A stretch of DNA of 56,615 nt, filler included, from Dimargaris cristalligena (lineage: Eukaryota): the NCBI GenBank assembly GCA_003614675.1. It is 3 parts of 3 records of this genome, joined end to end, with 100 filler letters (N's around TTAATTAATTAA, not from the genome) between each part and the next. Parts side by side here need not be neighbours in the genome. Positions count along the whole stretch, not along the records: positions 18,930 to 37,745 come from ML002753.1; 2 more parts are not named here. One strand, given 5' to 3'. Below are positions 18,930-46,000 of the stretch, one piece after another. The notes beneath the pieces are model-generated. The model ran no database searches and was not told the origin of the DNA. It was given only the letters and a program-made list of their open reading frames with translations. Numbering within the stretch: the stretch's first letter is position 1; each line of letters starts with the position of its first letter. The position numbers and the translations under genes were made by a program.

Positions 18930-18989
18930 TTATTACTGTTTAAACTTTCCTTTTCACTATTCTCCTGCCATACCACAACAATTATAGCT

Positions 18990-19063: not shown

Positions 19064-20894
19064 TTCTTTTGAATTTTTTTCTGACCAAAAATCCTGACTA
19101 TTTACTGCATATTAGTACTTACATACTGAATCTGTTTCTATAGCTGGTTCGTATTGTAATGCGTATATGGACTGTATAACTTACCCGACTGCTGTTTTAG
19201 AAGACATAGCAAAGCCACATAATACAACCACAGTATATTTATTTAAATTCTATGCAGATGTGCCATTTCCAACTAATAGCTTGGGAGGTTAGCTGGTTAA
19301 TTATTTTAGGGGTTGGGTTGGGGCGGTACCAAGCCAGATGTATACGCATGAGCTGTATTCCCATGCCACCCAGCCTTTCCGGTTTTTGCTATATTTTTTG
19401 GCTATTTGAGTGCTTGTATAGTCTTCATAATTCTGTACGGTGTGTGTATAAGGCTAGTATGTGAATGATAAAGGCGAAAAATTCGCCAGTTACTGATGGC
19501 AGCTGGGACAGAGTTCCACGGCCCAGTTGATAGAATGATGACCAATTATATATCACGTGTGAGGTATATCTATAGGCGTGCCAAGCAGCCCAACATGCCA
19601 TCCAGCCCAATGAGGGAGCATTTGCGAAAAATGGAAAGTAAGGAGGAACAGTGAATTGCAAATATAACCATTGGGAGTGTGGAAGGTAAAGAAGGACACC
19701 AACCAATATTCCTAGAAGCAAATGTGGATGATTGGATCATTCCCGGTGGATTCGTTCGTAGTGGGGCGGAGCTTCCCTTCTCCCCTTATTTCTGTATTTA
19801 AGTTCTTGGCTTATTCTCTAATGCTATGCCGTTCACTATGGTCGTGATCGTCGGAATGATCATAAAAAAATCCACCTATCCCAGTTGAGCATTAGTTGAC
19901 AGAACGCAACAAAGGGTGTGCTCGCTTAGGCGAGAGGATCGACCAAGCCCCCCCCCCCGCAAATGTCACTAGTAGTAGTTCATTGACCATTGGAGTCAGG
20001 CCACCTTCTTTCCCTCGCTAACCTCGGCTAGCAGCAAAGGCGCCGTCGCCTGATTGAAGATAATTTCACTGGTTGGGGATAACTAGCCGAGGCCGTTTAA
20101 ATTAATAATCCTTGGGGAAGTTATAGGTTCATTCGACGATGGCCAAGCCCATTCGCATAGCTGATTGAGTAGTGTAGGCCATACGTAGATACTTGATCTA
20201 ATCCTTGAATGACACTATCTTTAATAAGGTGATTGTACGGGAATGGTGCTATTGCCGTGAAGATGGGATGGGGAAATAAAGCGAACAGCGCCAGGCAGTC
20301 AAAAGCGGAGGTAGCCTGCTACGTCAAAAGTATATAGGCTAGGGGGCAGTGTAGGAAGAGGGGTGATATTATTAGATGTTGACATAAAAGGGGTGGTATA
20401 TGTAGCCAAAAAAATAATTACTAGTCGGGCTGGTAATTACAACGCTGGTAAAAAAGAAAGGGAGGTCCGTAAGTATAGAGAGGGGGCCTAGGATTCAAGT
20501 GCGAAGTGGATGGTGAATAGGTATTATCAAGTATATAGGAGTGTGGGAGCAAAGCTGCTAACGGAGGGGCGAAATCAGCTGGAAGTGGAGGCAGGAGTGT
20601 GTTTGTGTGTGGAAAAGAGAGCGGGGAGGGAAATATGTGAGTGTATTAAGCATGAAGTGATTAGGGTACGAAGCGTAGAACTGAAATGGGGTCAACGGAA
20701 CTGAGCGCTTCAAGGGTGTGAAGTGAACAAGACCGAAGTCCTGCGGACGCTCTACGGTGTAAGTACCACTGGTGGTCTATAAATAAATATATATGTGTGG
20801 AAGTACATATATGAATATATATAGGGTATGCAAGTAGGTAGTAAGGGGGAGAGACAGGGATATTTGTCAGGGGAAGAAGGGGGTGGGGGTGGAC

Positions 20895-21557
20895 TTAAGC
20901 CAGCACCGAAATAAGGCCAGAGAGGGCGGCGACCAGACCCAAGGAATAGGTCAGAGAGGCAGCAGCGTTAGTGGGGTCCCCGGACAAGTATGGGCGAGGC
21001 TGCTGACCGATGGAGGTCGAAGTGGGAGCAGAAGCGGACTGGTTATTGGCGGGCGTATTGACAGTAGCCGTGACAGTGGAGGTCGCAGTTGACTTGGGGG
21101 TCGTGGTGGTGGTCGTACTGCTTGAACTACTCTTAGTAGAGGTAGAGGTCGTCGTGTCTTTATCATCATCGTCGTCGTCGCTGGTTGAGGTTGGCTTGGC
21201 TGTGGTGGAGTCCTTCGTCGGGGTAGGAGTAGAAGTCGACGACTTGGTTGGGGAGGGTGTGGCTTTAGCAGAAGAAGTGGTAGTGTGCTTGTTATCATCC
21301 TTGTCCTTGTCGTCGTCATCATCATTATCTTTGTCGTCGTCATCATTGTTGACAGCGCGGTTCATCAACCCTTGAACGCTGTCGGATATACTTCTTCTTG
21401 AGAGGTTCTCCAGGACGGCACGGACATCGTCGCGCTTAACGAGGTGGCGACGAAGCGGTGTTGTGCGAAGGTCTCGGCCAGTATCATAAGGGCCAGCCGA
21501 CGCCGGAGCAGCGGTGTAAAACAGGGAGGTGACAGCAACTAAAATGCAGAGCTTCAT
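20895..21557 (-). CDS. GPI-anchored Ser/Thr- and Asp-rich cell-surface protein (220 aa)
   Basis: Signal peptide MKLCILVAVTSLFYTAAPASA, dibasic KR site, Asp-rich tracts, Ser/Thr stalk, and C-terminal NAAA + hydrophobic tail (SLTYSLGLVAALSGLISVLA*). Confidence 0.85.
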   Translation of the reverse strand: MKLCILVAVTSLFYTAAPASAGPYDTGRDLRTTPLRRHLVKRDDVRAVLENLSRRSISDSVQGLMNRAVNNDDDDKDNDDDDDKDKDDNKHTTTSSAKATPSPTKSSTSTPTPTKDSTTAKPTSTSDDDDDDKDTTTSTSTKSSSSSTTTTTTPKSTATSTVTATVNTPANNQSASAPTSTSIGQQPRPYLSGDPTNAAASLTYSLGLVAALSGLISVLA

Positions 21558-24500
21558 GGTGACCGAGATAATAGGGGAAGCGAATATCAATAGTAGCCAC
21601 AAAGGGGATAAAAGTAGGGAATGAAAGAGAGAGATACAAAAATAGATATTAAGGCGAAAGAAATACGCAATGTGTCGATAATAAAGTAGAGCCAACCGAC
21701 AAAAATACACGCAAAGCTGCACAATGTGAAAAGTGGGGAGCGCTGTGGGGTGCTTATATAATTATGGAAACACTGGTAATTCAGGTACGATTGGGCCAGC
21801 GAGGGGAGGGGCGAACCCAAGGAAAGCCTTGATGCTAAATATGGTAAGGATAATCAGTGAGCGCACAGTTGGGCTATACAGCACCCGAGCGAGATGAGAG
21901 GTTTGCTGTGAGAGCTTCGGAGTGTGTTGGTGCGAGGGGAAAACGATTGACGTGGACATGCACGCCGCTTGGCCCATTCAAAACACTGGGGCGAAGGAGA
22001 TGGCCAGTGAGGCAACAATAAAAGGAAAAAGAAGGAGCAAGACCAATTGGAAACCCGTTTAAGTTTAAACGGCTGGGGTTGATCAGAGAAGAAAGTGGGG
22101 CCGAAGTAAGGAGAAAGGGGTCGTCGAGACACGGCGGAGAATATCAATCGGAGACCAACTATAACCGGACGCAGGAGAGAGCTAAGGCAGGGGCAACTTC
22201 AATAGTTCCAACGGAGCAAGAATAGACAGCGAGGACAGGGGCGTTGACTAAACAGCCACAAAAACAAGGCGGGGTGGTAAATCACGCTGCTGAGCAAGAG
22301 ACCAGGGCTTAATCTGGAATATGTAATGGTGTGTCAATAAATCAAGGAATAAGTGACTCAAGGTTATGGGGCGGGCTTGGGTTTATATCCACGGCAGCCG
22401 TGTAGTTTTAGTTGGGTCCGGTTCAGCCCGAAGGACGTATCTGAGGAAAGAAAACGTCTGGGATGGTACAGAAACGCGCTACTGTCCTGTATGTGTGCCA
22501 GGGTAATGGTAGCTTTCATTGGCAGACCCTTGGTTTGCGGTACCTTCCCATGGGCCAGTCACCGCGTCGCCAGCTACACCATTGGCCTTACCGCTGCGCG
22601 TAACGGCAGTGAAGTTTTCGGTATTTGGGGTGCACAACCGCGGCAAGGTGGCCAGACTATTAATACCATCGAATCACCAGGGTGAGGTGGATGGGTATCG
22701 AACACAACGCCCAGCTAGATCCACAATTGGACCTAGGCAGCGCGTTAAGGCCAAGCTTATGTACGACTACCGCCTAGTCCATTACACCTACTCTAGAAGC
22801 CATATAGGTAGCTTGGTCTAGTTATCTATCTGTAGGTTTCCCCTTTCCTGCTCGGCCAAGTCCCAACTGCACCAACATTCTTGGACTCACCCTCGGGATA
22901 GCTGGTTACAGCCGATAGTCATAATGATTTGACAAGCTCCGGGCCGGTACCATTGTATAAAAACGTTGTCACTAGACCGACGGGCAATCGCACTGCTCCG
23001 ACTTTTCAGGCGTGTTGCGAATCGACCGCCTAAAACCCGTAAAATACTATGAATACATTCTGAAACAAGCGGATACCCCTTCTATTAAAAGACCACTTTC
23101 CCCCCATGATCCGGCCTTTGGCTTTGGGTTGCACAGCGGGGGCATGTGGTATTATTTTCTTCCAATCATACCGTAACCTCAGGACACTTCAGCTTTATCA
23201 TTTTAAGACCATAGCCAAGCCAATAGCCCCATCAACCAACTAACCTTGGGTGGAGCCAACCGAACCCGCACCCCGGTGCCAAACCGCTCGGAAGTTGAAC
23301 CACATAAAGCACCTTTTAATCGGATGGCTTTGAGAGCAATATTGCACCTTACAAAGTAAGTGCAAGTTCCGTGCAGGCTGAAATGTTCCGAGGTCCAGCC
23401 ACAGTTAATTAATATTGTCGTGGCACCCGTGCCTAACTATACCGCCCTTTGGTCGACGGAGGTTTCGCTGATTGAATTCGGAATATTCTGGAGCCTAGAT
23501 TTAATCCCTTGGAAAAATCCATGGAAAAGAAGGGGTGAGGGGAAAGAGGTGTTATTGAAAGGTACATGCCCCTCCCTTCTTCTCAGAAGGGTTAGCCATA
23601 GGATTGGTCGACAAGCCCCCTAACTCGATTCTCCGAGTATTCACCGCCCCTTACCGTCTACTGTTAGCTACAAGGGAGCTTTTTGCCGGAAATATTTCTG
23701 GTTAATAGGTATAGGTGTATACTAACGAGAAAATGAAAAAATACGCCAGGTACATTTAATACGGGTCTGAGAGGAAATGGCCCGCAGTTCAAGCTGAGCT
23801 ATTTTCTATTTACATTATCAGTATGGTCGTCCAATACTGTAATGGAGGGGAAATCCTTGGGGTGCTTACCCAAACGGTTACTAATGCCCAATTGACCGTA
23901 TTCCGCTCTGGTAATGACGTCGTTCTAGGTGGCGATAGTTTTCAATGTAAATATTGTGCCTCAAAACTTAGTATTGCAGGGGTTTAAATGACAATCCTAA
24001 CAAACCACCCCATGCCTCCAATTTTACCAAAAGTGGGTTAGTGGGAAAGTAATTAATGCCAGCTGATGATGTGGAATGGAGGTTTTCGACTGACCAACAC
24101 ATTTGGCCGATTTAGGCCAATGGCTAGGAAATGTTCATAAATTAAATCTACCCACACTCGTCAGTTATTTAGGGAAAGCAGATGTGAAGTATCGCCCTCA
24201 CACCCACTTTATTCCCATACACTGCTTAATATATGTACATTGCGCCATTGGGGCCGCTCAGCAGGAAGTGCACAGCACACAGTTCAAGGCGGGAAGACAC
24301 CGATTCTGAACTTCCATAGTCCCAATTATACCCACCCAAGTTGCGATTTTCGAATTATGATTCAGGTGTTTTTTGTATGTTCACGAATCGTCGGCAATGG
24401 ATGGGTGTAGACAAGTCTTACTACGCAGATCATCTACTGAGGAGACGGAGAGACGATCCTACAGCATTGCTACCCGTTTATTCCTTCTTGGAAAGGTGAA

Positions 24501-26108
24501 AGCCAATCCCCATATAGAAAGCGTACTTGTCTCCATGTGCCGTCGATCCCATAGCAGCGCGTTGAGCCACCGTTGGTTACCCCGCTGATCAGGTGGGGTT
24601 ATACATGGACGAAATAGCTCACTGTAAAAGGGCGCACGGCGGATGCCTATACCCATAAATAAACCTCCGATTTAAGGGGAGCATAAACAAATCGGCAGAA
24701 CTCCAGAAGGGATATTGCAATTGCATAATGCCGATGAGTATTATGGGTGACCCGTAGCTCAGCCAGTCTCGTCGCTGGTAATGTGTTATTATTATCGTTT
24801 TCCTTAAGTGAGAATCAATAAAAGGAGCCTAGCTAAGTTATATATGGAAAACATAATACGTTTACTGTACTGGACTATATCGATTAGTCATGTATTACCA
24901 CCTAATTTGCCGTATCGGGCTAGGCCGTCACGGACGACTGTTTTGCTAATCGGCTGAATTTTGATTCAAAACTCCGCTCATTTCCCAAGGTCTGCTATTC
25001 TTGAAAAAGGTGGGCAATGTATACGATGTTCTAGGGAATGGGCATTGCTTAATTTATTCACAGTCAAATATCTTTTAAAATACTCAACGGTATTCACTAC
25101 CGACACGCTAGTAAGCCTAGTTCCCAACTATATTTGCATTGCAATTGTCACCAAATGGGTTACTTTATGCACCCCTCAGTATCCACTGAAATGTACCAGG
25201 ATACTCTAGCCTGAAAAGAATGAACCGCTGTCGATTTCGGTGAGTCGCGGTTTTTCCACGCCTACCTTTTTAATCGCTTTACCTGGGAGTGCACGGCAAT
25301 TAGGACCTTGCAAGATCTCCAACCCTCAAAAAGTCAAGACTATGGGCTTGGTCGAGTGAACCATCCATTTTTACTTGAATCCGATTGCCAAATTATAAGG
25401 GTGAGTGAGGGAATGAGGCTTTACTGCGGAGGCCTTCCATATATCTTCCGATATTATTTGGAGTCCAATATGAAGGCTATAGTATCCTAACTATTTCCGG
25501 TAGTGGATAACCAGTATATTTGAATGTCTGGGGTGTTGATCAAAATGGGCCAGACACGTTCCACATAGGATGCCTATAAATGATTACGAGATCCTATATT
25601 AATCGATCATCATTTCCAGCAGGGCGTTTGAGACTTGGGGTGGTGTTTGTATGGGTCGTGTGTGGTTTATAATGCATCCGAATCAACTTTATAACGCAGG
25701 TCGTGGTTGGCGAGCGCAAGGGCCTCGGTACATCGGCTTTTAAAGCCATTTCCTTTTGATGGAAATTAAAGAAAGCTTCGGTGTTAACATTAAGAAGGGT
25801 TTCAAGCTATAATGAATCTGCGCCGTGGTATGACTATCAACCTTCCCTTTAGAGCCAAAGTACCATATCAACGTGCTTTGAAGTGATCATTAACCCGGGT
25901 AACCAAAAACATAAGTATTTTCAGTCGTAGTACTATGAAATAACGGGCTATTTTTATATAGTCAATAAAAGTCCTGGCAATACCCTGGCGTATATATGAG
26001 GCTAGTTAGGGTTAGCTCGATACCTGCAAGGTATGCGATAATAAATAATACTAAAAAAAGAATCAACAACTGGCGTCTTGTAGCCAACGGTAGAGGGGGG
26101 CTAGACTT

Positions 26109-27461
26109 CTAGTTTTGAAGGTATTCGTAGAGTCGGAGCAGGTTGCGCTGAAGCATGGCCACCGTTACCTTACCGACCGACGGCACGTAGATGGAGGCCT
26201 TTTGCTTGACATCATCCTCGAAGTTCTTGAATGTGGAAAAGTTAATGGCCACCACTCCGTCCTTCAGCAAGCGGGTGGGCAGTTTGTACTGGGCGACGGG
26301 TACACCGGTAATCACCACATCCGAAAGGGGCACGCACTCCTCCAGTCGTTGCTGGGTTTCAAACACTTCGTGTTTTTTGAGTTGGATACCTTCACCGCGG
26401 TGGAATTCCAGGACGTTGTGGATATCGATGGAGTAGACCTTGGCGCCGTCGTTGGCCAGAAGAGCCGCTAGGGGACGGCCCACCACTTCACTTCGGTTGA
26501 TGATCGTGATGGTGCGTCCGTGGAGGCGGTTGCCATACGGGAGAATTTTGTTGTAGACTCCAACGTGCTCCAGGACCTGCAAGGGAAACGTATAGGGCAG
26601 TACATTGAACGTACATGGGGGATGAGTCGATACAAGGTAAGAATACGCCCATTGCGGGAGGCCACCAACAGTCCCGACTACCACTGGCAATAGTACTATT
26701 TACATAATTCGGTATGATGAAGCTGAGCAAATGGGACCCCGGTTTTAGATTATTACCTTCACAACGGCCAACGGAGTGCAGGGAATAATGCACTTCCGGG
26801 ACTCGGCCTCGTCCAGGTACCGAACGTTGTGGTACATGTTGTAACAGTAGATATGGCACAGTCCCTCGACGTCCTTTTGGGGGCTCACCACATTCTGGAT
26901 GTACTGATCCTGGCGGTCGCCGAAGACGGGGTAGTAGACCAGAATGCCATGAACAGAGGGGTCCTCGTTGGCTTCAACCACCTTGTTTTCGAGCAGGTTA
27001 CGGTCCACCTGGCGAAGCTCAAACTCCACCCTCGTTTCGGCACAGGTTTTAGCGGTCCATTCGGCATACTTGGCCGCGGCCGGATCGCTGTTGGCCAAAA
27101 AACCCACCAGCTTGGGGTGCAGACCGTCGACTTCGATGGCCTTTTTGAGCTGCTCCCTATTAGGTGGAAAATTATTGATCAAAAAGTGGGGTGGATAGTA
27201 GTCACAATTAATACGGGTGGGCTATTTAGCAGGGTCGAGCCTAGTTGCGTTGGCCCGTTGGGACTATCGCTTGGTCCCTAGGTCAAAGTTGGGTCTATAT
27301 TCAAAAACTATTGCTATGCAGCCTAATAGGAGTGTAACCGCCGGAGACAGAACGAGCTGCCGACCATGTGAACCCTAGTCTGTGCATATATACATGGGTG
27401 GGGGGGTTACCTACACGAAGGGCTTGGCAATTTCGGAGGCAAGTACAGTTTTTCCGGGCAT
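26109..27461 (-). CDS. MTD1: NAD-dependent methylenetetrahydrofolate dehydrogenase (exons 27461-27415, 27156-26757, 26576-26109; 304 aa)
   Basis: Motifs LVGFLANSDPAA, KDVEGL, PCTPLAVVK, INRSEVVGRPLAALLANDGA, DVVITGVP and VGKVTVAML match yeast Mtd1 as I recall it. GT-AG introns keep the frame. Confidence 0.95.
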
Positions 27462-28699
27462 GGTGGGCGGTCAAGGGTAGTTAGAAAGGGGGGTGGATGA
27501 ATGGGTTGAGGGAGAATCGGGAAAGAAGCTAGCAGTGTGCGGCTTTGTCTAGGGTCAACCAGTAGGTTCGTAGTGCTCGCTAGCCAAGAAAGGTGGACAA
27601 ATATGCTTATTGCAACAGGGGTATACAGGTGGGTAGCACAGAAGAGAGAGAGGGGTGTCTGGGAATGCTCTTTCCTCAGCAGAAGGGTTCTAATAGATAC
27701 AGCTGGTGGCGAAGAGGCGATCTCTCTCTCTCTCTCTCTCTCTCTTGCATACTAGGGCAAGTGTGTCCATCCATTGCCTCTCACCGATACTGCTTTGTAA
27801 AAAAACCAACCGAGGCTGCTTAACTAGGAACGGACCTATCAGCAAAAGACCCATTTATCATACTTCGCCGTGGTTGGCCAGCAATTTTTATCCACTGCCC
27901 TTTCCATGCACATGTTGTTTGGTTTGGCTTGTTTGGGTTGGTTCCCAACCCCAATTATACCGTCTCCCCCAATTCCCCGAAAATATGGGGCAATCAGCTA
28001 ATATCTAGCGGTCTAAACATTTAGTGTGGTGGATGGGGTGATTCTCTTGGATTATTATTAGCGTAGAGGTCATTATATTTAGTTGTATTCTGCTAGGGAT
28101 TGCAGCTGTCAACCGAGGAGGCAGCGCTTATTAGATCTTATTGGGGAATCTCTATTTTACATACCGAGATTGAAGATTTCTAGCAGAACCACCGAAATGA
28201 ATACTAGGATGCGGTTGGTTCGGATCGAACTGGAGTCTAGCTGAAAAAAATTGGTTGTTGCATCAGGTGTTGCTAATAAATAGCATAATTCGGGCTTAAG
28301 TATACCCCACCCGTTACTGTAGATCATTTTAATCAGCACTAGTGCATAGTAGCAGCATTAGCATCCAATACCTCTGTGCCCAGAATAAGCATGCAATACC
28401 CTCGAATTCTCGCACTAGTCCCATGGTAGGTGTATCCAAGGCCCTTTTTAGCTATTACAGGAGGATCAGCTCTACTGAACATGGCCTAGAAAAGCAAAGA
28501 ATTGATTCGCATCCAGACTATGTTGCTTATTAGCTGGCCATTAATCACAAATAAGCAATATTCTTATAAGGTTTATAACTTCGATGTACCATCTTGTAGC
28601 AATCAGATGGCCATTTAGAGGGCAAGTAAGAGACAACAAGGTATATTATGTTTTTTAAAGCCCCCATGCTTCTCTCGTTCACTCTCTCTAGCAAGCTCG

Positions 28700-31600
28700 T
28701 CAAGTTTGGGCCAGAATCACATGTCCCAAGAGATTATACGCCGCGGGTAAACAAGTCATGGCCAAGGGGCCTAGCAATAGACCATGGGGACCAAAAGCCC
28801 AGAGTCCCAGAAGGATGCTAAGGGCGGCGAAGAAAGGGTTGGTGTCAGGGATCGCGGCGTAGAATACGGGATCCACGAACCAACCGATGGCGACGTGAGC
28901 GCCCAGCAGGGTGATGGCATTTAGCAGTTGGCCCTGGGCCAGGAGCCATAGCGTAGGCGGGACAGCGATGCACCAGGGAGAAACCATGGGTACTACCGCG
29001 ATGACGCCTGATACGAGGGCGCACGTATACCGCAGGGTATCGATGCCCCAGTAGCGGAACGTCACCCACGTCCAACCGATATGGAACAGTCCCATTTGAA
29101 GGGAACATAGAAGAATACCGCCGATACTCCGTTCGAGGGCGCGGCGAATCTGTTGTTCACGGTCCACAAATACCAGAACCCGCCCAAGAGAGTGTAGCAC
29201 CGACTGCTCCTGCACTACCAGAGAATAGAGGGTAAAGAAGAAGAGGAGGAGTTGGAAAAGGACATCAAACCCTACCGTGAAAATATGCAACAGGGTTAAC
29301 AAACTCAGACTAAGGGCCCGGAGGGCTTCGTTCCCCAATGCGGCTAGTTGGGCCAGAGTGGCCGCCCGGGCGGCCTCAATGCCCAGGTGGAGGGCTCGGT
29401 AGCGTTCACTGACCTGGGTGGCTAGGTAGTGGCCCAACTCTTGGGTCGCCCGCCAGTAGTGCACGGGGTATAACCAGTAGGTCCAGTCACTACGGAGCAG
29501 GGTTAACTTGAATTGGCCCAAGTGGTGTAATGGATCCGGTGGAGGAGGGCATAATAATTTGGCGCATTCCGAAATGGCGGCAGTGGGAGTGCCAAATGGG
29601 GCGTCCGAATGTGGGGTACATATCGCACAAGACGGGGGAGCCGCCGTGGTGGACGCACCCGTGGGATTGGCCGTGGTATCACCGTCTAACGAATCCCGGG
29701 CATTGCTCAACCGAGGAACGGCCGGTAGGTTAATCGGGGTAAATTTCTGGCCCAACGCAGCAGGTTCACCACCCCCCCCCTCCTCCTCCAGGACGAGAAT
29801 GGGCCGCTCCAAGAGTGGATGGTTTATTCTTGCCACCAATGATAGAGCCAAGATGTTTTAGGGCCATAATATGACTTTGGCTGTAATCCCGGTAGGGCTT
29901 AGATTGCTCAGCATCGGTTACGGGAACCAGTGGGTCTGTTGACGATAGGGGGGACGAGGCCCAGGGCGCCCGACCGGCATTCAAAATGATGGTATTATCG
30001 AAGGTCTCCCCTTTGAAGGCCAGGTATTGCTGCCGGAATCGCTCATAGAGGGTGGCGGCAGTGAGGTTAGAATCGGGGTAGTATTCCACCAATTTGGTAT
30101 TGACCCAAGTCGATAGCTCGCCCTGCACCGCGATGGATAGCGTAATGAGATGTCGGCTTAAAGTTTCGGAGACCCCCGTAAAATTGTTATTGCCCGATAA
30201 CCAGGGATGGGTGGAGGCTACCGAATCAGCGCCTCCAAAACCTCCCCCCACTGCCAACGAATTACCACCGCTGTTTACCCGGGCCTCGAGAGCACTGATT
30301 TCGGTCATGAAATTGTAGGAATCATCCAGGAACTGGGCCGTTTCTTCAGCGGTTTTGTAAAGTAGATAACCCATGATAACTACCGTGGCCGTCGTCATGC
30401 CACAGATAAGAAACGTCGTGACAATCTCATTGAGATTGGCGATTACAGTAGATTTAACATAGCGATTGCAGTATTTTGTAAACAGGTAGATAGAGTGCCC
30501 TACCAGGCCCACAGCCAGACTGCATTGGCAAAGTAGGGAGTAGGGGATACCCAAGACGAGTGCACCCAGTCGAATCAGGGCAGATCCCAAAGAAGCGAAA
30601 AGGGAGCGCGAAGTCGGTTCTGAGGTCTGAGGCTCCGTTGGATCATTCAACACGGCTGATTCAGGGATTTCGGGATTTTCGGGGTTTTGCTGAAGCACCG
30701 GGGTTTGGGTGTCCGGGATGTCTGTAGTGTCAGAGAGGAGTGGCGACGGGAAGGGAGATGGACTGCTCATTACGCCAGTCATGGCCCGTGGGCGGCGGTA
30801 GGCCTTAATACGGCGGGCGCTCCGGCAACTGTCATCGGAAAAAAAGGCACTCTCGTCATCACTCATAGCCGAAGTGGACGGAGGTTCCGGTGGAAGTACC
30901 GGGGACTTCTCCGGACTGGACTGGCATGTCAAGCAAACCGATGACGGGGCTAATCCGGGTATGGCCCTTTGGCGACGAACCACCCTTAGACACCCACGGA
31001 GGGACCATGATCCCGCCTGGGACAGCCGGGTCTGCATGTGGGCAATATGGGACCGAAGCATATACCCGATAAAATGGTAGGTGGAGTGCATGACCAATAC
31101 CAGGCAAAGCCCCATGAAGACCATCTGCAATTGCGTGAGGGTGACAAGGGACCGACTGAGTATGTCGTACGCGATGGTGAATATACAAAGGCGGAAGACT
31201 AAGCTAATCCACCACCATGACTCGCCCCAACTACCATCATGTATATCCTGGGGCCAAGTGTCGGAGATGGGAGTGCTGGCAGTAAAATTTGAGTTACTGG
31301 GCGCAGTGTGGGTCGCCCCTGCGGTGCCGGCTTTGGGAAACAATCGCTGGGGACCACGGGGGAAGGGCGAGCCGGTGGATCGGAACTGATCCCCGAATGT
31401 AAATGGGGGGATATTAGGGGTGCGAAAAATAATAGGGGAAATCCGGTCCAAGAACCGCCGTTTAACGCTGTAAAGTCCCTTGGAATGGGAGTCCGCCAAG
31501 TAGGACGAGTTTCGCATGGGGGTGTGCGGAGTTGCAAAGGGGTGGGGACTGTGTGTGGCTAGGTTCTGACCTGGAGTACCGCTAAGCTTGGACCGGTTCA

Positions 31601-33057
31601 TCAGAGGGGTTTGGTGTCGAAACGTCGTGGCAGTATTGGCGAGAGGGGCAGAGGGGGTGCTGCTACTCAGTCGGGGACTGTTATTATTGGCCACAAGGGA
31701 ATTGGAGTGGAGATGGCGCGGTGGGCCCCTGGTGGACCGAGAGAGTGTTCCCGGTAGGTGACTGGATCCCAATGTAGTGGAAGCCGTTGGAGTAGCACCC
31801 ACGGCGAATTCGATTTTACCGACTATGGCGGGCCGACTGGGCGGGATACTGGGTGTTGTTAATAACTCGTCGATTGATGGAGTGGGTCTTTCGGTGATGG
31901 TATCCTGTATTTTCCGAGATGGGGTCTCCTCCATCAGGGAGGCCGTGGTAGGGCCCCCTTTGAATTGGAAGGGTGGTGGTTGTGAGGCTGGAGTAGCCGA
32001 ATCTAACTGAAAATCGCCTTGTTGAGTAGGGCTCATACTGCTAAAGTAGCCGTCCTCACTCCCCGCATCCAACTCGCTTTCCTCGATATCAGTACTGTCC
32101 GGATGGGGTTGCGGGGTCGGGGAGCCCCCAAAGGACTGGGCGATGGGGGATGGACCATTCGCATGGGCGGCATTAAACCGAGGTAAATTCTCCTCTTGGA
32201 CCACTGGGTTTTCCTTACGCTTGGTCGGCCCGGATTTTGCCCAGGCGGTAGGTGAAGCCTTATCAGTGGGTGGTGGCCGGCACTGGCATCGGGCATTGAC
32301 CGGTTTCTTGGCGGCCTCCTCATCTGATACGGTAGGAGGAAGTCCAGCGGACTCGGCTAGCCCACGGATCAACTCCATGTATTCGTGGGCTACCGCAACG
32401 AGCAATTCATACACTGTCTGACCAAGTAGAGTCGTGAGAATGAAATGTAATTGCTTGGTGACTAGCCAGGGGCCAATGGAGGCGTCAGTCGCCGCCAATT
32501 CCTCCCGAAGGTAGGCGACGATATGCTTTTTGAGGGCGTGCATAGGCACGGATAGGGCAGCCGCCCAAAATAGAGCGGAGAAATAGGGCTGGAGTCTGTG
32601 GGTGTATGGTTATGGTCAATTCCGCCCATAGAATGGAATAGAATCGGAATGGAGTTAAATATGGGCTTAGTTATCAAAACTCACTGCTATAGCGGTCAGC
32701 CAGTGGCGGTGGAGTTAAATGATGAATGATAGTGGAGTCCCGCAAGCATGTGGGTATTATTTATACCGTGGTCACTGTAAAGCCTCACTGTTTAGGGAAC
32801 ACACCAGAGCGTACATTGCGGGGAGAAGGGAGTACTTACAGGACATAATTGAGCCAAACGGCAATGAGTACGGCCAGACCCACAACATTGACAATGAAGT
32901 GGAGGACGGCGATTTTAAGCTGCTCCCGGTCTACGAGCGGGTGATTCAAAAGCAGGGCTCGGGTCGTGGGGCTGTTGGCGTTGAGTCCAAGGCCTGGGTA
33001 CGATTGCTTGAGTGGGGTGGGCGGAAGTTTGGCCGAGGCCAAAGGAGTGGTCTTCAT
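28700..33057 (-). CDS. TMEM245-like / AI-2E (UPF0118) family multi-pass membrane protein; exon 33057-32840, exon 32595-28700 with an apparent 1-nt frameshift at 29772-29780 (~1370 aa if corrected)
   Basis: The spliced N-terminus ..WLNYVLLQPYFSALFWAAALSVPMHALK and C-terminus SILLGLWAFGPHGLLLGPL resemble TMEM245/AI-2E. Intron CT|GTAAGT..CACAG|A. ORFs 29766..32549 and 28700..29851 fuse if one G is removed from a G9 run. Confidence 0.8.
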
Positions 33058-34536
33058 GGCTGGTTCATAGACTTGAGCGGGAAGTGTTAAAAAGGTATGC
33101 AGGGCTAAATAAGAAAGATGTCGTGGAAAGGGCAATGGGAACTTCGGAGTGAGAAATGCGCAATCGGGACTTGGGGTTTGGTAGGAAAGGAAATTAGGCT
33201 AAAAACTCCGCGGGAAAGTAGGGAATGTCAAGTACATGCGGAACCAAGAAAAACTTAGAATAAGATAAAATACGAGGAACAGTAAAACTCCCGACAACTG
33301 TCAGTATAGATTGATAAGCAGACAGTAAAGTACCGCGGTATTACATATATAGGGAGAGGGTTTATCTCATAAAACTGTTAAATCCCTCTAAACATTTCCT
33401 ACTAGCAGGTCTACTATTCACTCTAACCTTGCATCAACCTACTCATTGATTAACAATTAGACCACTGTTCGTCTACAGCAATGGTAGTTCGCAAAACCCT
33501 TACTTGTTGGGGAGGACATGGGTTATAAAGACGACCAGGTTCATAGTGACCGCCATTACCTGTTTAAATGCCCTAAAGGTATCCTTCTATATCCGTAGAA
33601 CTGAGTAGATTGGGGCGAAGGGGCACAGTACTTCTGTGCGTAGCGAGCCCCCTTGAGTCAGCGTATCCCAATGATCAATTGGTCCAACTAAATCAGGGCA
33701 TAATGAGCCCCTTCTGTACTAACAGAATTGGCACACAATTTATGTTCTGAACCACTATTATTGAAACACAACACCAACAACCCATTGACTTCCTATTCAT
33801 GTGTCTTCGCATGGGCAGTGATGGGAAACTAAACAGTGGAATGCGCACAAAGTAAATCAGTAAATCCCAACTATGCTACAAATATTAGTGGCAATATTTT
33901 ACTTTGGACGAGCCCAGAGAGGGCAGAAAAGCGCAGCTGTTATTCCATAAAGTACCAGCCAAGTCGGAGAGCTTTATTCATATATATATAACTAGCCCCG
34001 GAATGTATCAATGTCCCGCCCTTATCACCCCGTCCTGGTACGTCTTCACTAACTCTTTAACCGGCCTCTAAAAATAAAATAAGATCCAGTAAAAGGCACC
34101 GAACTGTAAAAAGGAAGTGTCAATTGGCAAATCGAAGCCTTAACCAAAACCAAATTCGAAAGGAAATAAAGATTTCCCAATGGAGTGCTCACCATTTTAC
34201 AGTGTGGTTGTAATCCATCTTAGGCTGATAGGGTTTACCTATACATTCCCCAAGATAATAAGACCAGTATACATGGATTGTATTCTCATAAAATAATATG
34301 GCAAATGAAGATAGGAGGTCTAGGTCCCCTTTTGGATGTAGGCATATGCCATCATGTCCTTTATTCGACGAAATGGGTCAGAAAAAATGAGTTTAATAAA
34401 AGGGAAGAGATCGGGGGAATCAATGATCTTATGGCAATGTCTCCGTTCAAATATACTATACCAATGTCAGTAGGTGAGAATGTCAGAGAATGGGGCGGGT
34501 CAGAGTTCAACCAAATTAACCCGCTGGTGATTGGAA

Positions 34537-35250
34537 TCATCCATTGGTAGAGGGCCCTTTGGCACCTTGTTTATGACACGAATTTCTCTCATGGACTGTC
34601 CGGTTATCTGGACGGTTAAATTTCCTACCACACCGTTTACAGGCGAACGGCTTTGCATTTACGTGTATATTCATATGTCTTTGGAGGTGATCCCGGCGGA
34701 TGAATGATTTAGAGCATTTTGAACAACTAAATTTTGTCTCCTTACAATCCTTGCCCCGATATACCCGGCTGCTTTTGGGTACCTGCGGTTGTTTCACGTT
34801 GGTGTTGTGTAGATTTATTGGCACCTGGATGGAGAACTGGTTCGCTAGAGGGGGGAGGCTACCACTTCTTGAGCCGGAACTACTAACCTCATTAAAGGGG
34901 CTGGACCCTGTAGACTCGGAGCCTGGGGTGGACTGGTCAATGATGGTCGGTTGTTCATTAGCTTGAGCATATCCAATGCCCTCATTGTTCAAGGGGAATC
35001 CGAGACTGGCATAGTGGTTCATAAACTCTTCACCATCGAGCTGACCGATATACGCTAGATACTGCACCATTGACCAAGTCTGGAAAAAAGGATCCTTGGC
35101 TGGATTCAAACCTTCTTCCTCAAAACCGCCATCGGGGTTGTTGGCATCAAGTATGTCGTTGAGATGATTGAGACGGTAATCTTGCTTGGAGGCCCAGCTG
35201 GCAGCGAGTGAGCCCAGTAAAAAAAGACAAACGGCTCCAACGAAACGCAT
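34537..35250 (-). CDS. Signal-peptide-bearing protein with two C-terminal C2H2-type zinc fingers (237 aa)
   Basis: N-terminus MRFVGAVCLFLLGSLAASWAS. Fingers FSCSKCSKSFIRRDHLQRHMNIH and FACKRCGRKFNRPDNRTVHERNSC are joined by the linker VNAKP. Start context ACAATG. Confidence 0.88.
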   Translation of the reverse strand: MRFVGAVCLFLLGSLAASWASKQDYRLNHLNDILDANNPDGGFEEEGLNPAKDPFFQTWSMVQYLAYIGQLDGEEFMNHYASLGFPLNNEGIGYAQANEQPTIIDQSTPGSESTGSSPFNEVSSSGSRSGSLPPLANQFSIQVPINLHNTNVKQPQVPKSSRVYRGKDCKETKFSCSKCSKSFIRRDHLQRHMNIHVNAKPFACKRCGRKFNRPDNRTVHERNSCHKQGAKGPSTNG

Positions 35251-35268
35251 TGTGTTGATAAAGAATAG

Positions 35269-35469
35269 CTGGAGATTAAGTACTAAACCAAACCACGTCA
35301 GACTGGTGTGGATTCCTGTCTTACAATAATAAACTTACTCAATGGCCGAATACACCAATTGGCGGTGAGGATGTGATGGAATGGATAATGTATCTGTAAT
35401 GAAATAGGTCAATATATATCCGAAACGTAATGGATGGCAGATATAGAGGCGAGGCTATACCTATTTATA
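35269..35469 (-). promoter_or_regulatory. TATA box (TATAAATA, 35462-35469) and probable 70-bp 5'UTR intron (35338-35269) of the secreted zinc-finger gene
   Basis: Minus-strand TTTATAAATAGG; GA|GTAAGT donor and CTCCAG acceptor 18 nt upstream of the ATG; no ATG seen in the leader just upstream of the donor. Confidence 0.5.
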
Positions 35470-36438
35470 AAGGCTCAAAAATAGCACCCATTTGGCTGGC
35501 GACACTGGTCAGCGCAAATACGGATTGATAATCATTACGCCGCAGGCATTGGACGTCCTCGTTTATCCTAAAGATTCGAAAGGGCACTATGCACCATTTT
35601 TCTGCGTGGCTATGATTTTGGTTAGGGTTACACTAATTATTCGGTTTCACACATGGTCCAATGAGTGGCAACCCCCCATCGAGGCACTGTATAATATGGC
35701 TACCATACTAGGGTGGATTATTCACCATAAAAATATCCACCATCTCCGTGTTGCCAATGAAAGTCTCGTTTCATAATGGGACATTTCTCCCACCCACTCG
35801 TCAATGACCGGATAGTCGTACCACACCACAGTCATGTATGGCAGACCAACAAGCCAGGCTACCTGTACTCCTGTGACATCCTCGACTATCCACTTAAAAT
35901 GGTCCCCCTCGTCATTGAAGCGGCCCTATTTTATAATTAGTATTGGGCTTCAAGTCATCCAGGCGTTTTATCGTCCATACGAGCGAACATTACATTGTAT
36001 TGTATGGAAAACATCAAATTCTTGCATTGGCCACTTCATTATCTTTTAAGCCGAGGCGTCTGATTTGGTATCAAATTCTCTGTTGTTCTGCTATGGGTTG
36101 AACAATTCTCCCTAATAGCAATGTTTTGGAAGTACAGAGTAATGTTAGCCTGTGGTCACAGATTGAGATCCACTGATATCAATTGGGAACTGATGAACGT
36201 GCACGTGATGACCATGGGAAACGTGCACCATAGACGCATTGGTCCAGTTGTTACCAAGTGACTGTATAACCCTTGCGCTAAAGCAAAACAATCCGGGGTG
36301 GGAGGGGTGTCCCTCAAGTATGTGTATCAGTGAATAAGCATCAATACATTGGCCAACTAAAGGTTCGATCAATTACCATTTAAGGGGGGGGGGTAGGTAG
36401 CTAAAATAATATACAACTATAGACCCATTATTTTATTA

Positions 36439-36581
36439 AATGAGAGAGGTTCAACCAAGCTGTATAATTAAAAATCTGTTGGATGAAGCAAATATTACTG
36501 GTTAAAAATAAATCCCCCATATATTATCACATACACTTACTATTTAAAACCTTATGCAGCTGGGTCAGATTTCACCCATAT
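36439..36581 (+). mobile_element. MITE-like element, copy 2 (CpG-eroded)
   Basis: GGTTCAACCAAGCTGTATAATTAAAAATCTGTTGGATG...CTTATGCAGCTGGGTCAGATTTCACCCATAT aligns with the other copies. Several CG sites of copy 1 read TG here. Confidence 0.75.
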
Positions 36582-37745
36582 GTAGATATCAGCCATAATA
36601 CAAAGGTGCCTTCAGGCAGTTTCAAGCAGTCCACAAGTATAACAGAACTGCCAGGTAGGGCTATTGTCACCCAGATTTGGCAAAAATGACAAATTTTATG
36701 AGAATACTAAATAATTTGCTAAACCTAACTTGTTAAATTCTTCATTCTTGACTTGATGAGCCATGTTTGACTATACAGATGATTCTAACTGACACCTCTC
36801 AGCCAGCAGTTCCCATACCATCCCAACCATTTCAATAAACAAAAGGGTTAAGTAGTCTTCCAAATTTACCTGCTCAATACCCTTATTCCATAAACACTTA
36901 CCCGGTATTCACTTTATATATAATATCATTTATTAGTGTCCTTTAGTATTGTCTTAGTTACTTCTGTAATCCAATACTACTGGTCTGCTCTGCCAAAAAA
37001 AATCAGACTTATTACTTACAATAATTAATCAGTTACCTAGGCATTCAATCAACTCCCCTTCACTAACCAGCCTACTTACTGTATGTCCCAAGTTGATTAT
37101 TACATATGTTTTATAAAAGTGATATTTTCTACACTATATTAGGGGCTCCTCAATATACTCTTCTGTGGTGCAGGCTACCCCAGCATATTCTGGACCTTCA
37201 ACCTATGCTATATTAGTATAACTAGTAATTACAAGAATATGGGAGATAAATTATTAACCAGGGGTTTTTGTCTTATCCAACGGATATGTTGTTAGATGTA
37301 CTACCAAGGGTCAGGACAATTTTCCCTTTCCATGAGACTAACTGGTTATTATACTCCACCCCATGATACCTGCACACTCTAGGGCCGTAGTTATGCCTTT
37401 GCTGCAAACAGTGCTCACACTGGGATGAGTGAGCGACATTGAAGTCTTCCATATCTGTCATGACTGGTTAATTTGAGCTACAAGAATAACCAGCCATATA
37501 AGTAAAAAAACCCATACTAATAAATGGGTAAAATTAATATTTAATATTATCACAATATATACCCATTATCCTACTGTGTTTTATTCCCATTGTTTTATTC
37601 CCTGTATTACCTAGTTATTGATTTGTATTTATTAGTTGTTGTCATTCTTCTCCTGCCCCTTGAGTTTAGATATAACCCCAACCATTCCCCCTGTAAAGAA
37701 CTGAAATCAAATCCTTGAAAACTGAACTTTATTTGAAAAGATAGG
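36582..37745. other. CpG-depleted, TpA-rich non-genic tract at contig end (probable decayed repeat)
   Basis: Only four CG dinucleotides found by eye in ~1.16 kb; no credible ORF. Confidence 0.45.
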
Positions 37746-37845
37746 NNNNNNNNNNNNNNNNNNNNNNNNNNNNNNNNNNNNNNNNNNNNTTAATTAATTA
37801 ANNNNNNNNNNNNNNNNNNNNNNNNNNNNNNNNNNNNNNNNNNNN
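37746..37845. other. Artificial contig linker N44-TTAATTAATTAA-N44
   Basis: Same 100-bp structure as 18830-18929. Confidence 0.98.
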
Positions 37846-38418: not shown

Positions 38419-40308
38419 ATGGTTCCCAGCAATTCCAATGACATGGATCTCGATCCCCAACAGTCTACCCGCCCCTGGCCTCAGTATGCGCCAATGGCGA
38501 GCAGCGACGATAACGCTCCCCAGACGGTGCCTACTACTACTACTAATACTACTACTGTAACCCAGCGTCACCAGCCTCTCTATCCCATGGAGGTTAGCCA
38601 GGACCTTTTCGCGCTCATTGGAGGAGCCCCCACCGTTCTGATTCACAAGCCCAGTGCCAGGCCTAAACCAAAACCGGACGACACCCAGGCGGCCCAATGG
38701 GTATGGCGGGGCTTCACGAGTAGTGCCCGCAACGACGACTTGGTCCTCTACCATTGGGTTAAGGCCGACGAGGACCCTTCAGGTAAATAAACGTAACCCA
38801 TGCGATTATAATGTATTACACGCGTCCTGATACTTGGACCATATGGCATGCCAGTGGGTTAGGGGCAGGAACCCGTCCTCGGTATGGATTAAATTCCATT
38901 GGCATCTGCTAATTATCATCCTCCCATTTTCCATCCCACCCTGCCCCTTATGGTATGCACCCAATGTGTACCCGTGTCAGACTACCACTTCGCGCCCTTT
39001 AACCAGATGATTGATGTGGGTGAATACACCGAAGTCGAATACGACCTCTATCTACGCGACGATGACTGGACCAAGGCCGAGACGGCCTATCTAATGGATT
39101 TGTGCCGGCAGTTTGACCTACGCTTTGTGGTGGTTGCCGACCGCTATGAATTCCCGGATAAATCCCGAAGCATGGAAGATCTTAAAGAGCGCTACTACTC
39201 GGTCCAGCAGAAACTCCTACGGGGTCGACACACGGCAGGTCCCATCAACGACCCCGGTTTGCAGCGGGACTTGGCCGTTTATGATTACAACAAGGACCGC
39301 GAAATTGAGCGTAAGAGTTACTTGGAGGTCCTCTACCGGCGCACGCGGGCCCAGGTCCAGGAGGAGGAGGCCCTCTACATTGAAGCCCGACGTCTGGACC
39401 AAAACGAGAAACGCCTGACCCATGAGCGTAATGCCTTACTGCGTCTACTTAATGCCCACGAAACTAACCTACTCCTGCGTCAGGCCGGTCGCAAAGCCCG
39501 TCGCAGCGGCCAGCCGTCGAACCTGGCTATAGGGACGGGCAGTGCCGCCCATCACCTTCGTCTCGGGGGTGACGTCCCCGCCCACCTACATCTGTCCTCC
39601 CCTTTGACTGGGACTATTCCGCCGGGGTCCGACGATCCCGGGGCGGCGGGTTTGGTGGACCCCGCGGGATTGGACTCGTCTACTTCCTTCGGCGACGACT
39701 TTGCCACCCCTTTCCAGTCTAAGAAACGCAAATTCCTCAAGAAACACAAATCGGATACGCCGGGTACGCCCCGGGGAGGGGGGGGTCCCCTCGGCAGCAG
39801 CCCGGGTTCGCTCTCCCCCGTTCGGTCCCTGTTTCCCGGTACTCCTACCCCATCATCGGGCCTGGCGGCCGGTGGTGGTGGTGGCCATACGGGCTATGCC
39901 TTAGAAGGTCGGGAATTTGCCGATGGGGATCACCCCGGTTCAACCGGCACCGGCACCGGCTCCTCTTCATCAGCTGCTGCGGCGGTAGCGACCGGTTCGG
40001 CCCTGGTTACCCGGGTCGCCAGTCGCGACCGACAACCCCCCGGGGCCTTTATCCGTAGTACCCGGATTGCCCCCGTCAAGATCAGTATGAGCCAAAAAGT
40101 CCTAGCGTATCTGGATGAACTTAACGTACCTCCCCGGCCGGTGATGGCGACCGGTCCCATTTGCGCGGAATTCGACCGGCTCCAGGCGAATATTCTGGCC
40201 CTGTTGGAACTGAAGAAGCACGCGGATAAACTGGAAGCCGATGTCAAACAAGCGACGGCCCGGAAGGCCCAGTTATTGGGCCAGGATGCTTCTGCGACGG
40301 GCCACTAA
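38419..40308 (+). CDS. SWC4: SWR1/NuA4 complex subunit Swc4/Eaf2 (DMAP1 homolog), SANT domain (exons 38419-38782, 38981-40308; 563 aa)
   Basis: WVWRGFTSSARNDDLVLYHWVK, Y.FA.FN and WTKAETAYLMDLCRQFDLRFVVVADRY..RSMEDLKERYY are typical Swc4/DMAP1 motifs. Phase-1 intron G|GTAAAT..TCAG|AC. Confidence 0.93.
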
Positions 40309-43029: not shown

Positions 43030-46000
43030 TTATTCGTCTGCGTTGAGTGTCCGGAGTCGCTTCTGTCTTTCAGACAACAGTTCGCCCATGGCCTTGGTCT
43101 TCTTAAACCTATAAAGTGAAGGGGGAAAATTAGCAACAGGTGGGGGGGGGAGAGTCCACATATATAATATACAAACATCACCGGTTAGCGATCAGATAAA
43201 AATCACTCACTCACTCGCTTGGACTACAGAGGGCGGGTCACTACTATCTTACAAAGGATCAAAATATGTGGAGTTACTTACCGAGGATTAGTCGGATCAA
43301 TCGCGAACATGTGTGACTCATGCACCGCCGAGAAACGCGAGTCGCCCACATTAATCTTGAAGTCCTCTTGCAGATCGCGCAGTTCCTCGGCCTTATTCTT
43401 TCCGGGCGTCTTGCGGCGCCGGCGGCCCTTACGCTTCTCACTCTTGACAATTTCGTTCATGTCGAAGTGACGCTCGTCGTTGGCCTCTTCGTCCATCAAC
43501 AGCAGGTCCAGATTGGCCTGTTCACGCTGTTGTTCGGCCTCCTCCAGAGCGGCCTTGCGGGCCCGAGACTTCTTGGGGTCTTCGTCTGTAGATTATGGGT
43601 ATGGGAGAGGGGGTGGTTCGGATTATCCAATATAGATTTAAAAAATAACAGAGAAATTAGCATCCTATATCGACAGCCAAGTCGGGTATAGTCCCATTCA
43701 ATTGAAGACTGGTGAAAACATAAAGTACACGCGGCGAACACCCGCTATGGGGGGGTATAGAGAGACACGCTATTCAACCCCCTGTAAGCAAATCAGGCGC
43801 CCGTTAACTCCAGTTCCTATAAAAAACCAAAGCCATAATATAATGTAATACTTACCCTCGGAGGATTCGTCGTCTTCTCCAGTGGCAGCCATTTCAGTCT
43901 TGCGGCGCATTTTGCGTTCCAAATGCTTGCGGCGGTAGGCTTCCAGAGTGGTTTCGTTCTCCTTCTAGAATGGTTGAAATTAGGAACCATGGCGTCAACG
44001 TAGTCAGACCAGCCGCTCGGTTAGTTAGCATAAAATCAACAATACCCCAATTGAAGTATAGGAACAAGACCATGTGGTGCGAAAAATCAATTATACGGTG
44101 ATGGTTAATACTTACTGCCTCTTCACCACCATCGGCCTTGAAGTCTGGCTCCATTTCGTTCATGGCGGGTTTAAATGTAATTTGCATCTCTTGGTCTACA
44201 TCACCGTCGCTACCGTCGTCGTCCAAAAAGCTGGTTGAAGTCTTATTTTGGAGTAGGGCCAGGTACTTCTCCCGGAGTTTCTTGGACTTGGACCGACCCT
44301 TCAGGGCGGATTTCTTGGATTTCGGGGCCGGGACCGTTGATTTACGAGCGTCGCCGGCGTTGTCGTCACCGTCGCTATCACTACTTCCGGCCACTAGTCC
44401 CGAATTATCAATCTCGTCGTCATCATCATCCTCGGAACTATCATCGGAGTGGTCCGATGCCAAATAGGCCGAAAAGTCCATCGCTTCCACGTCCTCTTTG
44501 GTGAACGTCCGCCGCATCGCGCGCACCCGCTCCGGGTCATCCTCGTCCCAGTTCACCTTGATACGGGAATGACGCAGATTGCCCGAACTGAGGGATCCGG
44601 GCACGTAATGTTCGTCCCCTTTGGTCACACCGTCTTTTACATCGGCTTCATTGAACTGGGTCTCGTCAGGAATGTAGCGCAGATCAAAGGTAAGCCCCGA
44701 TTCCTCGAACTCAACGCCGTCGCAGTGCTCGTAGATAACCTGGGCGGTGACCACCGAGTCGCACTCTACCACACCGTAGTAGAAGTTGCGCTTGTCCACT
44801 TCGTATTGGCGCGCGGCGTTATGGTCGACTTCCTGGCCGTCGTTCTCTGTAAAGAGCGAACGAGGGAATAGGTCGCCGGTGTCACTATCTTCGGATCCAT
44901 CGCTGTCTTGGTCGGACTCGCCGGCGACTTCTTGGGGAATGCCTTCTTCTTCGGACTCCTCCAGCACCGCCTCTTCCTCTTCGGACTCCTCTTCGGAAAC
45001 ATCGGATTCCTCTACGTCACTACCGGATAGTCGGGATTTTCCCATTTGGGGGCCACTGACCGCTTCCTATAAATGGTTAAATGGGGCAAGCAGAAGAGAA
45101 TACACAAACGAATATATGAAAAAAAATACCCAGTATGTTAGGTTAGTAGGGTTACTAGGATGTGACTTTAGGGTATTATGATCTTGGGCGCCAGGGGGGA
45201 TAAAGGGGTTGATCCAAGAAACAGCGACAAAAATATCGTTTGGGGCACCGTGCCGTTATATCAACGGCGGAATAATTTGGCTATCTAAACTCACCTTGGC
45301 CATTCTCTGTTTACCGAATTCAGAGGGGTATATTTTAACGGACAGGATTGATCCCCCTGTGGGCTTCACCGTGGTAAAGACCTTGAATAAATCGCGGCAC
45401 TATTGGTATATAACGCAGGGGTATAGGGTGGGGATTATACATTAGCAACTTGCTTGGGCAATTGGACAAGACTCGAATAAAAACTATATACTCTGTATTG
45501 GCCCAAATAGTCCAGTGCAGTAAATTGCCGGGACCATTTCGACACGGGGGCTCAGGAAAGTTGAGATACTTACTTTGACATGCGACCAGTCCATTTGGAG
45601 AACAGCGAACCGTTTGGTGGGCTCCCCGAGTGGGATGGGTTCTGCTTCTTGTTCCTCTTCCTCGGGAACCTCGAGGTCCGACTCCTCCGAGGAGGATACC
45701 AGCCCGATACCACGTGCCGGGTCGTATTCCCCCGACACTGCCGGGTTGTCGGCGTCGTCGTCATCATCGGAGGCATCGTCATCGGATTCCGACTGACCCT
45801 TCTCAAATGCATCCATGTTGTAGAAGCGGCGGAGCATGCCCTTTTCCCGGTTAACATGGACTTCCCGACCATATTTATCGAATTTGGCTAAATAGGGAGA
45901 GGGTGGTCAAAATATTAAGGCGGGTAATAAAAGGCACCAGTGGTTAGCATCGGCAATATTCCTATATGTGAAGAGACCGGTATTAATGAATAATCGGGGA

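Follow-up and report, generated by a model that had tools for sequence, protein, structure and literature searches.

A two-finger C2H2 protein with a signal-peptide-like leader in the mycoparasite Dimargaris cristalligena, probably hidden by a fused gene model: a candidate host-nucleus effector

The window analysed here, 56,615 nt of Dimargaris cristalligena DNA, holds an intact single-exon ORF (34537..35250, minus strand) that runs from ATG to TGA and encodes 237 aa plus stop, and that very probably is a gene standing alone, encoding in one product a secretory-type leader and a pair of classical zinc fingers. The deposited models of the locus, RKP35936.1 and KAJ1979213.1, probably fuse two genes and thereby hide the zinc-finger protein, as judged from the comparisons below. 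Dimargaritales are described as parasites of Mucoromycota and Ascomycota that feed via an appressorium and haustorium (PMC9866270), and an order of haustorial mycoparasites gives the idea of an effector a concrete host; for a haustorial biotroph the obvious destination of a secreted finger protein would be the nucleus of that host. Taken whole, such a host-nucleus effector model is one that we hold tentatively, on the strength of sequence comparison, as possible but somewhat short of an even chance.

The window joins three separate contigs through artificial spacers at 18830-18929 and 37746-37845 (each 44 N, TTAATTAATTAA, 44 N), so that gene order across the joints carries no information; the real context of the zinc-finger gene is 18930-37745 alone. 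On the first contig piece we noted three Zn2Cys6/fungal-specific transcription-factor ORFs within 15 kb (3179-5512, minus; 11644-13953, minus; 15265-17613, plus), which may be a paralogue cluster, and on the third piece SANT/DMAP1-like, ESF1 RRM and DDT-domain ORFs of housekeeping type (38893-40308, plus; 43894-45066, minus; 50300-51334, plus). The features of the zinc-finger locus itself are as follows.

35464..35469, minus strand: TATAAA, 214-219 nt 5' of the ATG (from the sequence).
35269..35338, minus strand: candidate 70-nt 5'UTR intron, GTAAGT...CAG (from reading of the sequence alone).
34537..35250, minus strand: ORF in one exon (237 aa and stop), collinear over its whole length with the 238-aa paralogue RKP37639.1.
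35191..35250, minus strand: signal-peptide-like leader MRFVGAVCLFLLGSLAASWA, aa 1-20, likely cleavage after A20 (from hydropathy and conservation in the paralogue); identity to the paralogue 14/20.
34921..35190, minus strand: acidic/aromatic region, aa 21-110, net charge -11; identity to the paralogue 50/90.
34732..34920, minus strand: linker rich in Ser/Pro, then a basic stretch (TNVKQPQVPKSSRVYRGKDCKETK), aa 111-173; identity to the paralogue 33/63.
34663..34731, minus strand: C2H2 finger 1, aa 174-196, C-x2-C-x12-H-x3-H, helix RRDHLQR (best Pfam stretch, PDB alignments, AF2 beta-beta-alpha, pLDDT ~65-70); identity to the paralogue 10/23.
34573..34647, minus strand: C2H2 finger 2, aa 202-226, C-x2-C-x12-H-x5-H (or H-x4-C), helix RPDNRTV (second Pfam stretch, PDB alignments, AF2 pLDDT ~65-75); identity to the paralogue 11/25.
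34360..34365, minus strand: AATAAA, 172-177 nt past the stop, candidate polyadenylation signal (from the sequence).
33105..34745, minus strand: 1641-nt 'intron' of the fused models, donor T/GTAAGG at 34745 and acceptor AG at 33106-33105, read here as a prediction artefact.
33055..33057, minus strand: in-frame ATG (gccATGaag), likely true start of the AI-2E-family membrane protein gene (from the sequence).

The order of parts given by the original prediction, namely leader, acidic region, linker and two fingers, is borne out by the 237-aa translation, and every string that it quoted is found in the ORF (MRFVGAVCLFLLGSLAASWA, DILDANNPDGGFEEEG, DPFFQTW, DGEEF and the helices RRDHLQR and RPDNRTV). 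An upstream coding exon, which would make the leader internal, was looked for and none is visible. The ATG at 35250 is the first downstream of the TATAAA (35469) and has A at -3; no ATG was found between 35491 and 35250 on the minus strand, and none of the frames that open at the upstream ATGs (35491, 35535, 35549) exceeds nine codons (read by eye). Nor does the candidate 5'UTR intron add an upstream coding exon, since its putative first exon is without ATG. The 2.5 kb or so from the ORF upstream to the contig end (35251-37745) are AT-rich (GC 0.34-0.45) and contain no stop-to-stop frame longer than 101 aa, which places the gene in a gene-poor stretch; downstream of the ORF lies a further AT-rich spacer of about 1.5 kb.

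Beyond that spacer is a gene for an AI-2E-family (PF01594) membrane protein, and it is with this gene that the deposited models conflict with ours. RKP35936.1 (Dimargaris cristalligena) begins with the same 168 residues as the ORF, and the neighbouring exons of that model map to the window at 99-100% identity. Both RKP35936.1 (1491 aa) and KAJ1979213.1 (1554 aa) use aa 1-168 of the zinc-finger ORF only, then splice over 1641 nt into the downstream gene, dropping both fingers. The membrane protein gene itself spans 28703-33104 on the minus strand and probably starts from ATG 33057; there is a 63-aa difference between the two models, one reading through the other's ~175-nt intron near 29699-29873. 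Were the deposited structure right, the leader and acidic region would be exon 1 of a 1491-aa AI-2E-family protein, and the fingers would fall in an intron, as a remnant in decay or as an alternative last exon. That structure is given by two deposited annotations, its donor T/GTAAGG and acceptor ttatttAG match consensus well, and a multi-pass membrane protein with a signal peptide needs no special explanation. The finger part also has weaker codon bias than the N part: its codon score, synonymous and overall, is -0.19 with GC3 0.40, the best of six frames yet negative (over 68 codons of unusual amino-acid make-up), whereas the N part scores +0.19 and nine reference ORFs lie between +0.21 and +0.32. 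At the amino-acid level the two deposited alleles differ at 2 of 168 positions in the leader exon and at 6 of 1323 elsewhere, not a significant contrast (Fisher p=0.23).

Several observations nonetheless lead us to read the junction as a mis-fusion. The frame stays open for 69 further codons beyond the supposed donor and runs through two intact, Pfam-significant fingers to the stop; the sole relative found, RKP37639.1, has the same layout to its stop at 238 aa and is annotated on its own; the intron that removes the fingers is 1641 nt long vs. ~244 and ~175 nt for the other two of the fused model; the AI-2E-family gene has its own in-frame ATG at 33057, 16 codons past the acceptor; and an AATAAA lies ~175 nt past the stop of the zinc-finger ORF. 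The agreement of the two annotations may moreover not be independent, as the ab initio models behind Funannotate, which was applied to low-coverage genomes, are described as trained on BUSCO (PMC9866270). We thus consider it highly improbable that the deposited model is correct.

The paralogue, also from D. cristalligena, is 54% identical overall and collinear to the stop, which indicates that the fingers are coding and that the gene ends at 34537. It was the sole relative found by word-indexed searches (run with the whole protein, with a profile of aa 1-170, and with that profile against longer proteins), which returned nothing else except the fused model of the zinc-finger locus itself; a metagenome scan with the N-terminal profile yielded 175 pattern matches, none of them confirmed. 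An exhaustive search of representative sequences gave 63023 matches at E<=0.001, dominated by polydactyl zinc-finger proteins, and among the best 150 of these 63023 the N-terminal part was matched by RKP35936.1 only; swamped by polydactyl proteins, this search is uninformative on distant relatives of aa 1-170. Within the sensitivity of these searches the family looks species- or lineage-restricted, a distribution that is typical of effectors.

Conservation between the two copies is uneven. The best conserved part is the leader (14/20 identical, vs. 24/53 for the fingers); the recognition helices differ at four of seven positions in each finger (RRDHLQR here vs. RWNDLDR in the paralogue for finger 1, RPDNRTV vs. 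RSDNLKR for finger 2). All zinc ligands but one are kept in both copies: the final His of finger 2 is shifted here to give H-x5-H, vs. H-x3-H in the paralogue. Each copy has also lost one hydrophobic-core residue of finger 2, Leu being replaced by Arg217 here and Phe by Ser in RKP37639.1. That is, going by this one pairwise alignment, the leader and N-terminal module are conserved and the DNA-reading surface has diverged between the paralogues. Each copy also carries a single N-X-S/T sequon, in finger 2 in both though at different positions (N216 here, N212 in RKP37639.1).

The leader is the sole hydrophobic segment of the protein: the best 15-aa Kyte-Doolittle window reaches 2.37 over residues 3-17, and the best such window starting past residue 30 reaches 0.63. 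It shows the full n/h/c layout, with small residues at -3 and -1 of the predicted cleavage site (S18, A20), and it is kept in the only relative known (14 of 20 residues identical). In a rough control with 149 other zinc-finger proteins, among the matches listed by the representative search, just one has an N-terminal window of at least 2.0. By the positive-inside rule, flank charge sets the orientation of a segment in the membrane; here the charge is +2 on the N side of the leader and -1 over the 15 residues that come after it (in the paralogue, +1 and -1), which predicts an N-in/C-out orientation with everything past the leader directed into the ER lumen. Neither an ER-retention tail, a second hydrophobic segment nor a GPI-type tail is present in the 237-aa protein. 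In the paralogue the leader has Asn at -3 and an n-region without charge, making its cleavage site less canonical. Weighing these features, we think it likely that the leader works as a signal peptide, with a fair margin for error. By eye, no classical NLS is seen in the whole protein, and no RXLR-like or other uptake motif is conserved in both copies.

Between leader and fingers, the acidic region retains the strings NNPDGGFEE, AKDPFFQTW and IIDQSTPG in both copies and has no match to a Pfam family, and aa 21-170 gave no usable ESM Atlas match. An AF2 run on the two-row alignment returned a mean pLDDT of 41.8, with values below 50 for residues 5-171 and no confident fold outside the fingers, which alone reach 65-75; on this model the acidic region is probably disordered.

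The presence of tandem C2H2 fingers, claimed at the outset together with a TGEKP-like linker, is well supported. Pfam zf-C2H2 (PF00096) matches two stretches at E=5.1e-9 (36.5 bits vs. a cut-off of 25.2), and the pair aligns to the DNA-binding fingers of Zif268/EGR1 (E ~1e-18), of ZNF568 and of the designed protein Aart in the PDB; with the whole protein, the ESM Atlas offered only generic small C2H2 clusters (EGR1-like, YPR015C, MOT3), which we treat as leads. The linker fits the claim in part: it reads H-VNAKP-F here and H-TNEKP-F in the paralogue, so that the K-P-F core is kept and T-G-E is not, and exact TGEKP is absent. Finger 1 is fully canonical against the PF00096 pattern C-x2-4-C-x12-H-x3-5-H with its Phe and Leu core. 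Finger 2 keeps the core Phe, with Arg217 in place of the conserved Leu, and its base-contacting Asn216 lies inside an N-R-T glycosylation sequon; glycosylation of Asn216 in the ER is possible and would block DNA contact by this finger. The finger region (residues 171-237) has a net charge of +12.

Under the canonical C2H2 code, helices RRDHLQR and RPDNRTV would read 5'-nAGGGG-3'. The AGGGG reading of the original prediction thus holds as an application of that code to the copy here; it does not carry over to the paralogue, and each copy has a core substitution in finger 2. With helices that differ at four of seven positions per finger, AGGGG would at best be specific to the copy here, and the paralogue helices RWNDLDR and RSDNLKR predict some other site, GAG-GCG-like under the code. 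The atypical finger 2 further weakens the prediction, and we regard AGGGG specificity as rather doubtful.

If the leader does act as predicted, a working secreted DNA binder has to be reconciled with three awkward features: the sequon at Asn216, the RR (185-186) and KR (205-206) pairs inside the fingers, which are potential Kex2 sites, and a redox problem, as the oxidising environment of the ER may cause fingers rich in Cys to misfold. These same features count in favor of an ordinary endogenous nuclear factor with two fingers, in which the hydrophobic N-terminus would be inefficient, skipped because translation starts at Met61 or Met77, or used in some other role such as dual targeting or dimerisation. 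An acidic region followed by two C-terminal C2H2 fingers is, besides, the standard layout of small fungal activators, and the Atlas neighbours (the EGR1-like, YPR015C and MOT3 clusters, as leads) are ordinary small C2H2 factors. Such a reading must nevertheless explain why conservation is highest in the leader when the paralogues are only 54% identical overall, why it has the full n/h/c layout behind a first AUG in good context, and what use a nuclear protein would have for a 15-residue apolar leader, for which none is obvious; N-termini of this kind are rare (the 1 of 149 above, among the matches listed). We rate the endogenous factor as unlikely, if a serious contender. A membrane-tethered factor, its N-terminal segment an uncleaved anchor and its release due to regulated proteolysis, would account for the one apolar segment, 15-18 residues long, at the N-terminus, and tethered transcription factors do exist in fungi (SREBP, Mga2/Spt23). 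The flank charges, however, put the fingers in the lumen and not the cytosol, so that a cytosol-facing tethered factor is unlikely. The apolar segment is also on the short side for a membrane-spanning helix and closes with a cleavage motif of small residues; we find the tethered reading scarcely credible.

The protein could also be secreted and have fingers that bind a host protein or RNA, or that act outside cells, in place of a DNA-reading head. Substitutions in the core of finger 2 in both copies, the fast evolution of the helices, and a sequon on the base-contacting Asn216 would all suit such a role. Against it stand the canonical Krueppel-type tandem with its TGEKP-like linker, the net charge of +12 over the finger region, and the retention of Arg at -1 in both fingers and of Asp2 in finger 2 (in finger 1, position 2 is Asp here and Asn in the paralogue); Arg at -1 and Asp at 2 are hallmarks of DNA-reading fingers under the C2H2 code. 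Precedents are on record: secreted effectors of zinc-finger fold that bind host proteins have been described (PMC9618136, PMC11213319), as has an AVR-Pii-like C2H2 small secreted protein (PMC4759460). On balance a secreted protein whose fingers do something other than read DNA seems to us quite unlikely.

The effector model that we prefer would run as follows. A stand-alone, single-exon D. cristalligena gene would send its 237-aa product into the secretory pathway by means of a cleavable signal peptide (aa 1-20), leaving a mature protein of ~24 kDa in which an acidic region, probably disordered, and a Ser/Pro linker precede a basic, classical C2H2 pair. After its release at the haustorial interface, this protein would be taken up into the host fungus and reach the nucleus there by diffusion or via the basic finger region. 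There the fingers would bind a short G-rich site in host DNA, by the canonical code approximately 5'-nAGGGG-3' for the copy here, and the acidic region would serve as an activation or protein-recruiting module. We infer each of these steps (signal-peptide function, secretion, host uptake, nuclear entry, DNA binding with its specificity, and transcriptional effect) from the layout and comparisons given above.

Similar logic is known from the TAL effectors of Xanthomonas, which are pathogen-made DNA-binding activators that work in the host nucleus; the likeness ends with that logic, in that the DNA-binding fold, type III delivery and kingdom all differ. In architecture the protein also resembles the fungal STRE (AGGGG) factors of the Msn2/Msn4 type, with two C-terminal C2H2 fingers after an acidic N-terminal part, and the Msn2 helices follow the same contact pattern found here, R-1/H3/R6 and then R-1/N3. 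Msn2/4 are not known to carry a signal peptide. The contact pattern is, moreover, absent from the paralogue (RWNDLDR/RSDNLKR), and finger 2 here differs in its H-x5-H spacing and in the Arg at the core Leu position; outside the fingers, the N-terminal 170-aa profile found only the paralogue and the fused model of the zinc-finger locus, with no Atlas lead, and so gave no sign of Msn2/Msn4 orthology. AVR-Pii, for its part, is a much smaller protein with a single non-classical finger. The ZiF-fold AVR-Pii family of Magnaporthe oryzae shares with our protein, by description, that secreted fungal effectors are built on a zinc-finger fold, and differs in that AVR-Pii is reported to bind host Exo70 and not DNA (PMC9618136, PMC11213319).

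The closest parallels in architecture are the MoHTR proteins of M. oryzae. MoHTR1 and MoHTR2 are reported as secreted C2H2 proteins that enter rice nuclei and bind effector-binding promoter elements (PMC7672089), and MoHTR3 as a secreted protein that reaches rice nuclei and is laid out, in an order of parts like that here, as signal peptide, then NLS in the middle, then C2H2 finger at the C-terminus (PMC10189765); the concept of a secreted C2H2 nuclear effector is thus already established, via MoHTR1-3. As described there, these proteins are small and lineage-specific, with an N-terminal signal peptide (the leader here being predicted) and a C-terminal C2H2 finger, all of which they have in common with ours. 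For MoHTR1/2 the modelling template was the GAGA factor, a single finger with basic flanks, unlike the two tandem fingers and long acidic region of the D. cristalligena protein, and the MoHTR host is a plant, vs. a presumed fungal host here. The likeness is one of architecture: word-indexed searches with the D. cristalligena protein returned none of MoHTR1-3. For M. oryzae, 20 secreted transcription factors were predicted (PMC7672089), of which three are characterised in PMC7672089 and PMC10189765; many of the 'secreted transcription factors' of fungal secretome predictions have never been validated. The present protein differs from known effectors in several respects: its fingers form a Krueppel-type tandem, its acidic module is long, its lineage is early-diverging, and its presumed host is a fungus and not a plant. 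The R. irregularis nuclear-effector paper has zinc fingers in host preys only. A literature search for a nuclear effector of a mycoparasite found none, and a search by the accessions and locus tags of this locus found no citing paper.

The split between a conserved leader and diverged helices invites a wider and more speculative reading, which we consider unlikely as it stands: D. cristalligena may make a small family of host-delivered transcription factors, in which a shared leader and acidic module would provide for secretion, uptake and activation, and in which the heads would have diversified at four of seven helix positions per finger, each paralogue switching on a different set of host genes (for the copy here, an AGGGG stress-response regulon). 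Apart from any function, censuses of the secretome and of the transcription factors of D. cristalligena would miss a zinc-finger protein that is hidden in a probable fusion. The effectors of haustorial mycoparasites are essentially uncharted; if this wider reading is true, the protein would be the first nuclear effector described from one fungus parasitising another, and the first from an early-diverging lineage of fungi, and one whose target site is readable from its sequence. A secreted two-finger protein would have a measurable DNA site that can be searched for in host (Mucorales) promoters, and would in this way make reprogramming of the host by the parasite testable.
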